Source of the DNA: a virus
Taxonomy: Duplodnaviria; Heunggongvirae; Uroviricota; Caudoviricetes
Reading direction: 5' to 3' (one strand)
IMG/VR virus record: IMGVR_UViG_2698536428_000011
Length of the DNA stretch: 2,349 nucleotides
Both the position numbers and the translations under genes were made by a program. The number at the start of each line of letters is the position of its first letter. Position 1 is the first letter of the stretch. Below the pieces are notes generated by a model. The model was not told where the DNA came from and ran no database searches. It saw only the letters and a list, made by a program, of their open reading frames with translations. Below, piece by piece: positions 1 through 2,349 of the stretch.

Positions 1-555
1 TCATTTATCTCCGACCGGAAACTTCTTATACAAAGTCGATACGCCAACATCATAAATGATCGCCACCTTCTGGCGAGGAACTCCTGATGCAATTAGTCGC
101 CCGGCCTGCGCCCATTGTTCTGGTGTAAGTTTGGGACGACGTCCACCAATTCGTCCCTGTGCGCGAGCAGCTTCCAGTCCAGCTTTTGTTCGTTCAACAA
201 TCAGTTCTCGTTCCATTTCAGCCAGGGCACCCATCACATGAAAGAAAAAGCGCCCCATTGGGGTACTAGTATCAATTGAATCCGTCAGACTACGAAAGTT
301 GATGCCTCGTTCGCGCAACTCCTCAACCAGAATGACCAGATGCCGCATACTACGCCCCAGCCGATCCAGCTTCCAGACAACCAGAGTGTCACCTGCCGAT
401 AATGTCCTGAGCAGTTTTTTCAGTCCAGGCCTTTCGGACTTTGTACCGCTTATCTTGTCTTCAAAAATCAGCTCGCATCCTGCACAGTTCAGCGCATTAC
501 GTTGTAGATCTGTGTTCTGGTCATTTGTTGACACACGTACATAGCCAATAAGCAT
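1..555 (-). CDS. pin: Serine DNA invertase, Pin/Gin/Cin/Hin family site-specific recombinase
   Basis: ORF track 1..591 minus. Translation has the serine-recombinase N-terminal catalytic motif GYVRVSTNDQ (Ser codon at 529..531) and a C-terminal helix-turn-helix-like region (GRRPKLTPEQWAQAGRLIASGVPRQKVAIIYDVGVSTLYKKF). Start placed at ATG 553..555 (MLIGYVRVS...), which has GGGAG 7 nt upstream, rather than the in-frame ATG at 589..591. Stop TGA at 3..1. Symbol given from recalled similarity to e14 Pin, not from a search. Confidence 0.9.
   Translation of the reverse strand: MLIGYVRVSTNDQNTDLQRNALNCAGCELIFEDKISGTKSERPGLKKLLRTLSAGDTLVVWKLDRLGRSMRHLVILVEELRERGINFRSLTDSIDTSTPMGRFFFHVMGALAEMERELIVERTKAGLEAARAQGRIGGRRPKLTPEQWAQAGRLIASGVPRQKVAIIYDVGVSTLYKKFPVGDK
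405..475. promoter_or_regulatory. Candidate Fis-dependent recombinational enhancer inside the invertase 5' coding region
   Basis: In Hin, Gin and Cin systems the enhancer lies within the 5' part of the invertase gene and has two Fis sites about 48 bp apart. Here GCAGTTTTTTCAGTC (411..425) fits the G-N13-C, AT-rich-centre Fis pattern, and a second A-tract element (457..472, GTCTTCAAAAATCAGC) sits about 47 bp away but matches only partly. Position and motifs are suggestive only. Confidence 0.3.
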
Positions 556-609
556 GGTAGATCTCCCTGACAAAAGCAGGAATGATGCCATTTGCTCGTT
601 ATTTCTGCA

Positions 610-635
610 TTTTCATAAACGTTGGTTTGGGAGAA
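610..635. repeat. Inversion crossover site, invertase-proximal (pix/gix/hix-like 26-bp site)
   Basis: Imperfect dyad TTTTCATAAACG-TT-GGTTTGGGAGAA. Its right half-site is the exact reverse complement of the left half-site of the site at 2326..2349. The 16-mer TTGGTTTGGGAGAAGC (622..637) recurs inverted at 2324..2339. AAAC/GGTTT arms around a 2-bp core are typical of Hin-family crossover sites. Confidence 0.75.
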
Positions 636-995
636 GCGGCAAAACGAAATGTGGGAACAGGGGAAAATCAGATACCGGACATGGCTTCATTTAGTGGGGT
701 GAGGGATTATTACGGAAAACAACTTTTGCCAGGAGGGTTGATACTTCAGTGGCTGACGATTCCATCAAGTGCAGCAGCCAAAGCTGTAACACTGAATAAT
801 GGTAATTATCAGCTGTCAGGCTATAAATGGCCCCAGTCATTTGGTGTCCTGTTTGCTGTGTTTGCTACAAAAGTTTCTGGCTCGACTAACGAAGCATATG
901 CAATCTCAGTTAATCGTCACTCTACCGATGTAATTGTCACCTGGAATGCCCGTAAGGCTGATGATGTCCACATTTTAGGAGTTGGGAAATTATGA
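610..995 (+). CDS. Tail-fibre C-terminal variable cassette, silent copy (Sv'-like); no independent start expected
   Basis: Plus-strand frame is open from the crossover site (ORF track starts at ATG 582 in the invertase leader) to TGA 993..995. The crossover site encodes the junction peptide NVGLGEA, matching LENLGLGEA on the other arm. Ends in an ATGA stop/start overlap with the downstream Tfa-like gene. By analogy with Mu S/S' and e14 it would be expressed only after inversion fuses it to the constant fibre N-terminus. Confidence 0.65.
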
Positions 996-1411
996 AAATG
1001 AAATGGTCCCCATCTGTTCAGGGATTTTTCTCTGAAAATAACAGCGATATTCCCGATGATGCTTTCGATATTGAAGATGCTCTTTATTATGAACTTATGA
1101 ATGGTCAGAGTACGGGGAAAATTATTATCAATAACCCGGATAACTACCCTGTACTTACTGAATATCCAGCGAAGACACAGGAACAGGAAATAGCTGAAGC
1201 GGAGGGAATGAAAAGTATACTTATTGAACAGGCCAACGAATACATGAACAGTAAGCAATGGCCTGGTAAAGCCGCTATTGGTCGTCTGAAAGGTGAGGAA
1301 CTGGCGCAATATAATTTGTGGCTGGATTACCTGGACGCACTGGAACTGGTCGATACTTCCGGTGCGCCAGATATTGAATGGCCTACGCCTCCGGCAGTTC
1401 AGGCCAGATGA
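992..1411 (+). CDS. Tail-fibre assembly protein (Tfa / gpU-like chaperone), silent-cassette copy
   Basis: ORF 992..1411, 139 aa. ATG overlaps the upstream stop (ATGA at 992..995), with AGGAG at 976..980. C-terminus ...[19 protein letters not shown] carries the conserved Tfa C-terminal motif (VDTS-APDIEWP). N-terminal region ([23 protein letters not shown]...[14 protein letters not shown]) resembles Tfa-type chaperones. Confidence 0.8.
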
Positions 1412-1646
1412 CGTCCGGCGCGGTGCTGGTATCTGATTCCATCACCGCGTCGATATTACCAACATCATATTCAGTCATTTCCGGTTCCGGTGGTGCTATA
1501 AACTCTCCGTCAGAATAGAACCAACCGACGCCTGCATCTATATCATCAATATTTATAATTTCGCAGTTAGAGAATAAATCACCCTCTCCATCCCAGATAA
1601 TAATATTTTTCACCACGCCATGTTCAATCAGAGCAAAATTACTCAT
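1383..1646 (-). CDS. Short Tfa-like tail-fibre assembly/chaperone protein, copy in the currently fused cassette
   Basis: ORF 1383..1646 minus, 87 aa. ATG overlaps the stop of the upstream fibre frame (TGATG), with GAGGAG 8 nt upstream. C-terminus ...[18 protein letters not shown] carries the Tfa C-terminal motif. Much shorter than typical Tfa proteins, so the functional call is tentative. Confidence 0.6.
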   Translation of the reverse strand: MSNFALIEHGVVKNIIIWDGEGDLFSNCEIINIDDIDAGVGWFYSDGEFIAPPEPEMTEYDVGNIDAVMESDTSTAPDVIWPELPEA

Positions 1647-2349
1647 CAGGCATACTCCTCAACAATAACTATTCCCGGGGCACCGTCACCTCCCGATTGA
1701 GCCTCACTTCCGGCAGGTGCGCAGGCTCCGCCTCCGCCAGCACCAAAGCCCTCAGCTTTACCACCACCACGTCCGCTGAATGATGAAGAACTTGCACCAC
1801 CTATACCGCCTGAACCTAGTGGTGTATCCCCCCCGGTACCACCTGCAACAGCTTTAACAGAGATAACCATTGCTCCTGGTGTTTTTGCACTACAGCGAAA
1901 TGCTCTTAGTACAGTACCGGACGATGTCGGACTGGCACCCCATGAAATACCCTGAATATATGATGTGTTTGCAGATGCTCCCCCCGCGCCACCGCCTGTA
2001 CCACCCGGTGCAGTTATCAGGGAACCGAAATAAGTTGTGCCACCTTCACTACCTGAATTTCTTCCGGCTCCCCCCCTTTACCTGCAGCACCGATAATAAC
2101 GTTGACTTCGAAATCATTATCAACCTCGAAAAATGCTTCAATAAATGCACCGCTCAATCCAGCTCCGGCTGTTGCCTGCTGATTTGCTGTTGTTTCAGGA
2201 ACCCCACCGCCGCCGCCACCGCCACCAGAGGCAATGACCCTTATCTTTTTTGTCCCTGGTGTTGGGATATATTTTCCAGAGCTTTTAAAAATATTCGTGT
2301 TTAACAAACGACCAGAGAATCTGGCTTCTCCCAAACCAAGGTTTTCGAG
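1646..2349 (-). pseudogene. Tail-fibre C-terminal variable cassette (Sv-like), partial at window edge, reading frame broken at a G7 tract
   Basis: One minus-strand frame is open from the window edge through the crossover site (LENLGLGEARFSGRLLNTNIF...SGGGGGGGGV...GAAGKGGEPEE...) to TGA at 2019..2017. A second frame is open from 2077 to TGA at 1648..1646 and encodes Gly-rich fibre-like sequence (...TAPGGTGGGAGGASANTSYIQGISWGASPTSSGT...GGTGGDTPLGSGGIGG...EEYA) coupled to the Tfa-like gene. The frames meet at G7 on the minus strand (C7 at 2070..2076); one extra G would give a continuous cassette of about 234 codons. Could be a true frameshift, programmed or slippage-based decoding, or a homopolymer sequencing error. 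Confidence 0.55.
2326..2349. repeat. Inversion crossover site, invertase-distal, truncated by window end
   Basis: TTCTCCCAAACC-AA-GGTTTTCGAG (last 2 bp of the 26-bp site would lie beyond 2349). Its left half-site is the exact reverse complement of GGTTTGGGAGAA at 624..635, placing it in inverted orientation to the 610..635 site. The minus-strand fibre frame reads through it in frame. Confidence 0.75.

Follow-up and report, generated by a model that had tools for sequence, protein, structure and literature searches.

A widely conserved 29-bp tail-to-tail coding overlap at the centre of a Pin-type invertible tail-fibre segment

The 29-bp overlap between two convergent chaperone-type reading frames in a 2,349-nucleotide stretch of caudoviral DNA (IMG/VR record IMGVR_UViG_2698536428_000011, hereafter the window) forms the centre of a prophage switch that changes host range by inversion; such a centre is ordinary and widely conserved, and constitutes no new phenomenon. 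We are confident that it represents the junction in the middle of an invertible switch of the Pin/Gin type, of the kind found in the P segment of e14. The arrangement, pointed out in an earlier note on this DNA, is not peculiar to the window: K-12 e14 has it annotated between tfaP and tfaE, and as a standard and very common prophage feature it does not warrant being flagged as unusual. We regard the overlap as already known on the strength of public annotations, without a published description: a full-text literature search found no paper discussing it, and the words 'overlap' and 'terminator' are absent from the 2025 paper on PinQ and e14.

The overlap itself, as described in the earlier note, is borne out by the ORF table (992..1411 on the plus strand, 1383..1646 on the minus strand), with 29 bp coding on both strands (Table 1). 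Neither frame has an earlier in-frame stop, and sequencing error is excluded because the window is 100% identical to the complete genome NZ_AP045181.1 and the junction recurs in thousands of independent assemblies. The placement of both conserved C-terminal motifs in and around the overlap was likewise accurate, the plus-strand motif reaching 2 nt into it and the minus-strand motif 11 nt, which correspond to its W-P codons.

Table 1. Features of the window and their coordinates
Feature	Position	Strand	Description
pin (pinE-like) serine DNA invertase gene	1..555	−	Resolvase E 1.1e-51, HTH_7 E 3.4e-14
Alternative tail-fibre tip ORF	585..995	+	Predicted to be silent in the present orientation; phrog_2557 E 2.7e-41, weak Gp53-like_C match
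Left inverted repeat, crossover site	617..637		21 nt, 95% complementary to 2324-2344
Tail fibre assembly gene, TfaP-type	992..1411	+	139 aa, stop TGA 1409-1411; 'long-tail' C-terminal end
Hairpin A	1328..1373		In plus-strand gene codons Y-L-D-A-L…G-A-P-D-I; 17 pairs, 1 bulge
C-terminal motif of plus-strand gene	1352..1384	+	From codon-by-codon display
Pseudo-palindromic core	1379..1406		28 nt, TGGCCT-N8-CCGG-N8-AGGCCA; two-fold axis between 1392 and 1393
Dual-coding overlap	1383..1411	both	29 bp; from ORF table and codon display
Chaperone-like ORF	1646..1383	−	87 aa, stop TAG (complement of 1383-1385); 'short-tail' end WPELPEA*
C-terminal motif of minus-strand ORF	1433..1401	−	From codon-by-codon display
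Hairpin B	1416..1452		In minus-strand ORF codons D-A-V-M-E-S-D-T-S-T-A-P; inverted repeat; 10+3 bp stem in plus-strand RNA fold
Glycine-rich tail-fibre tip	1646..2344	−	Predicted expressed orientation; Gly_rich_2 E 8.6e-6
Right inverted repeat, crossover site	2324..2344		Inverted repeat pair with 617-637

The window consists of a Pin invertase gene and a ~1.7-kb invertible tail-fibre segment between inverted repeats. In the identical genome, PGAP names the gene at 555..1 'pinE: site-specific DNA recombinase', and the constant fibre part lies past the right repeat (CDS 6326..6676), the repeat itself marking the boundary with that ORF. An invertible switch is expected to show an adjacent serine invertase, short bounding inverted repeats of which one lies within the fibre gene, two opposed cassettes of fibre tip and chaperone, and both orientations among genomes; all of these were found, the last of them across genomes (the window and NZ_AP045181 against CP060083; L116 against L117). 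In CP060083 and others, which match 617-2344, the segment is turned the other way round with respect to pin; matches in flipped-state genomes start at 617-622 and end at 2344, and the assemblies L116 and L117 differ by the flip alone. Strain G1/2 represents the flipped state, and in it the constant fibre part runs in frame into the tip ORF at 585..995.

The two cassettes, each formed by a fibre tip and its cognate chaperone, face each other tail to tail. Pin inverts the 1.7-kb segment between the 21-bp repeats, which brings into the expressed position whichever cassette then adjoins the constant fibre gene (minus strand, beyond 2344 on the right). Judging from the anatomy of the segment and from the Mu and P1 switches, expression is probably limited to the joined cassette. 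The picture of two convergent units active together therefore had to be abandoned in favour of alternative cassettes of a Pin-invertible segment, and the overlap would carry no collision cost because the two chaperone genes would not be transcribed toward each other simultaneously. Both chaperone starts overlap the stops of their fibre genes (ATGA at 992-995 for the 585..995 tip ORF and tfa; TGATG at 1644-1648 on the other strand), which suggests translational coupling. The glycine-rich fibre gene is frameshifted, with a C7 run at 2070-2076 against C8 in relatives (a 1-nt gap against two relatives), and is intact, at 244-245 aa, in strain G1/2 and L116. Because the frameshifted gene is the one in the expressed orientation, the strain of the window may no longer have a working switch.

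Gene order and invertase are those of the K-12 e14 P segment (stfP-tfaP / tfaE-stfE, by pinE), in which tfaP (1208132..1208545) and tfaE (1208517..1209119) are annotated with a 29-bp tail-to-tail overlap. The junction DNA is nearly identical over ~145 bp (about 1307-1452), with few mismatches, and the protein tails are identical, the short one reading WPELPEA*. In contrast, the cassettes differ: the plus-strand Tfa of the window is 50% identical to K-12 TfaP, its partner is an 87-aa ORF with another N-domain instead of the 200-aa TfaE, and its fibre tip is glycine-rich and frameshifted in this strain. The baseplate genes beside the segment also differ between the identical genome and K-12 e14. 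What the window shares with junctions of the e14 type is the 29-bp overlap, the core TGGCCN7CCGGN7GGCCA, a long tail WPTPPxxQAR* and a short tail WPxxPEx*. The same overlap length between two annotated tail fibre assembly genes, with the same palindromic core, is found in two P2-like temperate phages that have an invertase, Escherichia phage Cartapus (OV696611) and 'P2' (NC_041848), and in Shigella phage SfIV, the last having lost its invertase side to an IS element.

The earlier note had suggested a comparison with e14, Mu and P1 for a similar overlap, which is present in the first and absent from the other two. The Mu G segment (S-U / U'-S', gin) and the P1 C segment (cin) resemble the window in having a serine invertase, inverted crossover sites and tail-to-tail cassettes of tip and chaperone, and their Tfa proteins end (W/F)P-x-x-P-x*, like those of the window. 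However, their U and U' genes do not overlap and are separated by a 28-bp spacer, whereas the window has no such spacer. The Mu/P1 spacer contains a perfect GC-rich hairpin (AAGGCCCG-ATAG-CGGGCCTT) with z −4.7/−5.1, which on one of the strands is scored as an intrinsic terminator. A Fis-dependent recombinational enhancer, which in switches of this type sits in the 5' part of the invertase gene, is annotated in P1 cin.

Read directly from the sequence, the palindromic core encodes W-P-x-x-P on either strand around a shared CCGG. It recurs in diverged junctions from Citrobacter, Limnobaculum, Yokenella and Trabulsiella, as well as in pattern-scan matches, and within the overlap plus-strand codon positions 1/2/3 lie opposite minus-strand positions 1/3/2. 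The length of 29 bp arises because the long-tail gene, which has CAG at the symmetric-stop site of the short-tail gene ending in WPELPEA*, reads three further codons, Q-A-R (the antisense of the W-P codons of its partner), to a TGA. A Citrobacter relative has the 20-bp form, which a single C/T difference (TAG against CAG) produces.

Exactly 29 bp were scored in 149 of 151 convergent Tfa pairings, many junctions in this survey being counted from both strands. One exception (L012) overlaps by 20 bp and the other (L017), scored as 59, is an alignment artefact that becomes 29 after hand correction. A pattern based on the palindrome, independent of protein similarity, returned 119 matches, of which 84 have exactly 29 bp and rarer forms of 14, 20, 26 and 32 bp share the same core. 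With both counts taken together, the arrangement is far beyond chance. Of the 5426 complete E. coli genomes surveyed, 2108 (~39%) carry the 121-bp junction, with up to 7 copies per genome. Positions 1251-1400 of the window are common to 94-96% of related loci and positions 1401-1450 to 81%, with matches averaging ~90% identity and sharing figures for 1200-1411 inflated by the partial selection of these loci on plus-strand protein similarity, whereas the cassette flanks are common to only 4-12%. The junction would thus be inherited as a unit common to otherwise mosaic cassettes, because the conserved Tfa C-terminal module is encoded there and the variable N-domains would move with the fibre tips. 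Tfa chaperones are modular, with a variable N-terminal fibre-binding domain and a conserved C-terminal module (PMC9608196), an architecture that would account for a junction kept while cassettes vary. The overlap marks the conserved linker at which tail-fibre host-range cassettes swap, and is in this respect relevant to the annotation and engineering of phage host range.

The absence of space for a terminator between the convergent genes, pointed out in the earlier note, stands literally, as there is no intergenic spacer, but a hairpin lies within the codons of the partner 4-9 nt past each stop. Hairpin A begins 9 nt past the stop of the minus-strand gene in the leftward transcript, and hairpin B 4 nt past the stop of the plus-strand gene. 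Both are stable, with energies close to −23 kcal/mol in the window and between −19 and −30 kcal/mol among relatives (−23 to −29 kcal/mol for hairpin A across relatives). Transcripts leaving the active chaperone gene would run antisense into the silent cassette. There the hairpins (1328-1373 for leftward and 1416-1452 for rightward transcripts), Rho acting on RNA that is not being translated, or both, would probably halt or trim them. A promoter scan gave nothing at the junction, and promoter-like matches were not in excess (5 against 3.9±2.1 in shuffles), and an Rfam scan of the window returned no families.

A possible, though rather unlikely, alternative is that the junction is itself a selected nucleic-acid element, in which the hairpins, perhaps with the core, supply the bidirectional terminator that the junction lacks, or a 3'-end stabiliser, in place of the Mu/P1 spacer hairpin, and constraint is exerted jointly by protein, partner protein and RNA structure. 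The stability and position of the two hairpins agree with it, as does the conservation of pairing in hairpin A, where 86.4% of cells pair, against 30-45% with the partner slid, and 41 cells carry changes in both partners, compared with 18.8±4.6 after shuffling (0/500). Wobble:wobble pairs of this hairpin switch between C:G and T:A and between A:T and G:C, every Leu TTG faces an AAx codon (3/3), and the hairpin would account for the invariant wobble sites 1369 and 1372. Hairpin B, in TfaE-type relatives, pairs better as antisense read-through RNA than on the other strand (88.3 against 78.6% of cells; −20.2 against −13.4 kcal/mol). Moreover, Cartapus, a P2-like temperate phage with an invertase, has at the corresponding place, inside the coding sequence of the partner and 4 nt past the stop of the other gene, a terminator-like 12-bp stem with a T-run. 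The window, however, has a hairpin and no T-run there: the sequence 3' of the hairpins (AUAUUACC on the plus strand, AAUCCAGCC on the minus strand) contains no U-tract, and a scan for intrinsic terminators (GC-rich stem-loop with U-tract) found none at 1320-1460 on either strand. Both of the more robust covariation measures for hairpin A were non-significant (both-side pairs 5 against 3.8, 73/500; pair types 18 against 17.7), RNAalifold recovered its inner 6 pairs alone, and, the sequences being related, a few inherited haplotypes can mimic covariation. The core, folded alone, was no better than shuffles on the plus strand (z −0.34) and modest on the minus strand (z −2.28), and no core hairpin is claimed. 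For the hairpins, support from covariation is no more than suggestive.

Two further proposals on the hairpins were not retained. Specificity of hairpin A to convergent pairs is unsupported, as part of it, compensatory TTG/AAx changes included, persists in tfa genes that have no convergent partner, which also argues against its being an element proper to the overlap. Compensatory changes between window-type and Cartapus-type hairpins were dropped because the protein-motif alignment shows differing registers (D-A-V…S-T-A-P against A-V-D…S-T-A). In its broadest form, the proposal would place the overlap at the centre of a composite selected element whose two conserved, embedded hairpins shield both the silent cassette and the invertase gene downstream against read-through from the tail operon, which we consider doubtful. 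If it were true, the Tfa C-terminal codons would be under triple constraint, from their own protein, the partner protein and RNA structure; embedded hairpins doing the job of the Mu/P1 spacer terminator are the point of possible experimental interest.

The description of the overlapping frames as two chaperone genes holds in full for the plus-strand gene and in part for its partner. The plus-strand protein matches Caudo_TAP (PF02413; E 2.6e-23) over profile positions 17-130 of 131, scoring 83.1 bits where the Pfam gathering cut-off is 22.1 bits, and it also matches phrog_188 (E 2.3e-51). The minus-strand ORF, at 17.3 bits, falls below this cut-off, residues 68-86 alone matching profile positions 113-131, and it is therefore classed as chaperone-like with a Tfa C-terminal tail rather than as a member of the family. 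NCBIfam gave no matches for the three proteins tested. The 87-aa ORF comprises a small N-domain (aa 1-56), which matches phrog_14370 (E 1.7e-8), and a shortened Tfa tail, with Tfa-type matches confined to aa 65-86. Of the conserved C-terminal module of Caudo_TAP chaperones such as TfaMu, it keeps the last ~20 residues. Judged by these matches, it is a putative chaperone without most of the conserved Tfa helical region.

These same properties could be read as decay, the ORF being a TfaE-type remnant, the plus-strand tail alone functional and the window devoid of real dual coding, but we find this improbable. In the identical genome PGAP treats the 3' end of the ORF as a pseudogene fragment; there and in strain G1/2, 1383..1454 carries the label 'phage tail protein, incomplete, missing N-terminus'. 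The likeness to Tfa is restricted to the last ~20 aa and lies below the Pfam cut-off. Compared with a 132-aa relative (P0006), the ORF lacks some 45 aa of the conserved helical region, and the fibre gene upstream is frameshifted in the window. Nevertheless, the 87-aa frame is open from its ATG, which is preceded by a GAGGAG Shine-Dalgarno sequence 8 nt upstream and overlaps the fibre stop through TGATG, and the whole ORF is called as a protein by PGAP in NZ_LR882050.1. Its N-domain matches that of P0006 in addition to phrog_14370, and both P0006 and an 88-aa relative (P0003, 104 member sequences) directly follow intact glycine-rich fibre genes, even where a convergent tfa is absent. In K-12 and in many phages, finally, the same 29-bp overlap joins tfaP and tfaE genes whose full length is beyond doubt.

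The proposal that changes in the overlap are constrained by two proteins at once was upheld by the variation among 76 unique junction sequences, in which 4 of the 29 overlap columns are variable, compared with 19 of 30 wobble columns in a more upstream part of the plus-strand gene (1262-1351) and 6 of 7 in the motif of the minus-strand gene (1412-1433). Reduced variation in the overlap was also found in an earlier set of 53 sequences (Fisher p≈0.001). Almost no change in the overlap is neutral, because each wobble position lies opposite the second codon position of the partner, and the near-absence of variation fits a dual-coding constraint, of which the junction offers a tidy natural case in antisense. 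Low variation extends ~16 nt to the left of the overlap (1367-1382), and dual coding is therefore not the sole constraint; hairpin A covers 1367-1373 only. Recent common descent with homogenising prophage recombination, acting without dual-coding selection, is a very improbable source of the fixed length and low diversity: the several junction copies within a genome, the clear mosaicism around a junction common to unrelated cassettes and the haplotype-like dimorphisms among flanking polymorphisms speak for it, but recombination alone would not give so sharp a drop in wobble variation on a 29-nt scale, and junctions from other genera, with many substitutions, have kept the spacing of the core and, in most cases, an overlap of 29 bp.

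The earlier note had claimed a 29-bp tail-to-tail overlap between two convergent chaperone genes, one on each strand, with the conserved C-terminal motifs of both proteins in and around it. The ORF table, in which the two share 1383..1411, confirmed the overlap, and a codon-by-codon display placed the motifs at 1352-1384 (+) and 1433-1401 (−). Neither ORF truly ends sooner, there being no earlier in-frame stop, and sequencing error was excluded because the junction recurs in thousands of independent assemblies and the window matches the E. coli JNEC-KY208 chromosome at 100% identity. Within the overlap, plus-strand codon positions 1/2/3 lie opposite minus-strand positions 1/3/2, so that every wobble base is the second codon base of the partner.

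Features of the invertible segment and of the junction between its two chaperone genes
Feature	Coordinates	Strand	Remarks
Serine invertase gene	555..1	−	Resolvase, E 1.1e-51, and HTH_7; PGAP name pinE
Inverted repeat pair, 21 nt	617-637 / 2324-2344		95% complementary; delimits a 1.7-kb segment
Fibre-tip ORF	585-995	+	within the segment
Caudo_TAP chaperone gene	992..1411	+	E 2.6e-23; 139 aa, stop TGA 1409-1411 (ORF table)
87-aa ORF	1646..1383	−	stop TAG, complement of 1383-1385 (ORF table)
Glycine-rich fibre tip	about 2344..1646	−	within the segment, alongside the 87-aa ORF
Pseudo-palindromic core	1379-1406		axis between 1392 and 1393
Hairpin A	1328-1345 with 1357-1373	leftward	9 nt past the minus-strand stop; 17 pairs, one bulge
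Hairpin B	1416-1425 with 1443-1452, plus three inner pairs	rightward	4 nt past the plus-strand stop

The window represents an invertible host-range switch of the Pin type. To the right of the segment, on the minus strand, the source genome carries the baseplate genes along with the constant part of the fibre gene. Other genomes match exactly 617-2344 flipped relative to pin, the plus-strand cassette being there fused to the constant fibre part. The flip of a related P2-like switch segment is likewise the sole difference between two assemblies (GCA_041094415.1 and GCA_041094315.1), whose contigs are of equal length (604,560 bp) and hold the switch in opposite orientations. One of its cassettes has an 88-aa ORF with a 152-bp gap after it, and the other lacks a chaperone gene. 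The two chaperone genes of the window do face each other, as the earlier note described, but belong to alternative cassettes; judging from this anatomy and from what is established for Mu G and P1 C, they would not be transcribed against each other simultaneously.

The closest known system is the P segment of e14, whose junction is homologous and essentially identical to that of the window. The K-12 annotation gives tfaP at 1208132..1208545 (+) and tfaE at 1208517..1209119 (−), that is, the same 29-bp overlap, which is also annotated in phage Cartapus, a P2-like phage and SfIV. The overlap is already known from public annotation, where the K-12 reference and numerous phage records show it outright, although our literature search turned up no paper discussing it. 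As switches, Mu G and P1 C operate in the same manner, with a spacer hairpin in place of the overlap; the comparison with Mu U/U' and P1 that the earlier note proposed showed no similar overlap, the genes lying 28 bp apart. Their spacer contains AAGGCCCG-ATAG-CGGGCCTT, which folds much more stably than shuffled sequence (z −4.7 and −5.1) and passed the terminator scan on one strand only, so that the scan does not establish a bidirectional terminator. The same hairpin occurs in inverted orientation in the two loci compared (L008 2504-2531 in Mu, L115 7320-7347 in P1).

From ~1307 to 1452 the DNA aligns to K-12 with few mismatches; identity of the plus-strand protein to TfaP is just 50%, and the minus-strand ORF has only its tail in common with TfaE. 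Among related loci, 1251-1400 was shared by 94-96% and 1401-1450 by 81%, at ~90% identity on average, against only 4-12% for the cassette flanks, the left half of the shared tract being affected by retrieval of these loci with the plus-strand protein. As Tfa architecture is modular, with a variable N-domain and a conserved C-terminal module (PMC9608196), the junction represents the conserved part of a mosaic. An overlap of exactly 29 bp was scored in 149 of 151 convergent Tfa pairings from loci fetched with the same protein, many junctions being scored from both strands. The exceptions were a Citrobacter junction of 20 bp (L012) and one locus (L017) scored at 59, where the alignment had run past a stop; hand correction gave 29, in agreement with a display of the junctions. 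A search for the core pattern that did not depend on protein matches returned 29 bp in 84 of 119 matches, a few further Tfa-like junctions at 14, 20, 26 and 32 bp, and a remainder of chance matches in GC-rich contigs. Of 5426 complete E. coli genomes, 2108 carried the 121-bp junction, in at most seven copies per genome, usually annotated as 'tail fiber assembly protein (x2)'. A 1634-bp contig labelled 'MAG: Planctomycetia bacterium' (JABTVC010000021.1) encodes a Tfa C-terminus of enterobacterial type (58% identity), which probably reflects contamination or mis-binning.

The core reads TGGCCT ACG CCT CCGG CAG TTC AGGCCA, and both of its strands encode W-P-x-x-P, the central CCGG being common to the two distal Pro codons. 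The minus-strand gene stops two codons past its distal Pro (WPELPEA-stop), its TAG lying antisense to the P-T codons of the partner (cCTAcg). The mirror position in the plus-strand gene is CAG, so that this gene continues for three codons, Q-A-R (antisense to I-W-P of the partner), before it reaches TGA. In the 20-bp form (Citrobacter sp. Awk 4, near 3330-3360) TAG occupies the mirror position and the later stop is retained; a single C/T difference therefore separates the two forms. Since Tfa genes lacking a convergent partner end in WPxxPxx-stop, the three extra residues seem to be a side effect of the overlap and not to add a function. Despite many substitutions, junctions from Limnobaculum, Yokenella, Trabulsiella and Citrobacter retain the core and an overlap of 29 bp, with long and short tails at times swapped between strands.

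The proposal that two proteins constrain this stretch at once was supported. Among 76 unique ungapped junction sequences, which are mutually related, only 4 of the 29 overlap columns varied (two of them in more than one sequence), against 19 of 30 wobble sites in 1262-1351 and 6 of 7 in the minus-strand motif at 1412-1433. Fisher tests on a first set of 53 sequences, likewise related, gave p=0.0013 for wobble columns and 0.0046 for all columns. The low-variation zone begins at ~1367, 16 nt left of the overlap, and thus includes a stretch outside the dual-coded region (1367-1382); the quiet of 1367-1373 is accounted for by the 3' arm of hairpin A, and the quiet wobble sites 1375 and 1378, outside this hairpin, are too few to interpret.

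The absence of room for a terminator, also proposed previously, held insofar as the junction has no terminator-like site: neither a terminator scan at the junction nor an Rfam scan of the window gave a match. Yet a stable hairpin lies just past each stop, built from the partner gene's conserved C-terminal codons. Hairpin A reaches −23 to −29 kcal/mol in relatives. In 45 diverse sequences its pairing held in 86.4% of cells, against 30-45% with a slid partner, and both arms carried changes in 41 cells, compared with 18.8±4.6 for shuffles (0/500); the two measures resistant to relatedness were not significant (5 vs 3.8 pairs, 73/500; 18 vs 17.7 pair types). Wobble:wobble switches occurred at Asp/Ala (C:G 24, T:A 13) and Ala/x (A:T 44, G:C 10, T:A 2), Leu TTG stood opposite AAx codons only (3/3), and hairpin B showed switches of the same kind. 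Hairpin B pairs more fully and more stably when read as antisense, read-through RNA (88.3 vs 78.6% of cells; −20.2 vs −13.4 kcal/mol). This covariation is suggestive, not conclusive, and a selected RNA or DNA role for the hairpins, though possible, is in our view doubtful. Rho acting on untranslated antisense RNA would, on established knowledge, be an adequate alternative. That the hairpins embedded in coding sequence act as a terminator, the only reading with some novelty, seems unlikely. In Cartapus the rightward hairpin, a 12-bp stem with a T-run after it, lies within the coding sequence of the partner and passes the terminator scan; K-12 gives only a weak match. Against a terminator role, the window lacks a U-tract, part of hairpin A is kept in solo tfa genes, and RNAalifold recovers inner pairs only. 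A promoter-like match directed at the junction (CTGAAA-18-TATAAT, 10/12; 1286-1315, +) lies within the plus-strand tfa gene and recurs in Cartapus (L005 2795-2824); it is a consensus match only, the total promoter-like count being not above shuffles.

The 87-aa ORF is a mosaic of a phrog_14370-type N-domain (residues 1-56, E 1.7e-8) and only the last ~20 Tfa residues, residues 68-86 alone matching Caudo_TAP at 17.3 bits, below the 22.1 cut-off. A 132-aa relative (P0006), encoded downstream of a Gly-rich fibre gene, combines the same N-domain with a full Tfa C-region, including ~45 residues of conserved helical region absent from the 87-aa ORF. In a P2-like switch that has a 152-bp gap instead of a convergent tfa, an 88-aa relative (P0003, 104 member sequences) comes directly after an intact Gly-rich fibre gene. 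PGAP treats the ORF inconsistently, its 3' end being a pseudogene fragment in two genomes and the whole a protein in a third. Given the phrog_14370 N-domain, the position of both relatives after Gly-rich fibres, a GAGGAG Shine-Dalgarno and a start overlapping the fibre-gene stop (TGATG), the ORF in all likelihood encodes a genuine short cognate chaperone that owes its tail to the conserved junction. In the expressed orientation the adjacent glycine-rich fibre gene is frameshifted by a C7 run at 2070-2076 (G7 on the coding strand), perhaps as a true pseudogene, through a tract prone to slippage or by a sequencing error in the homopolymer; in two close relatives the run is C8 and the ORF intact.
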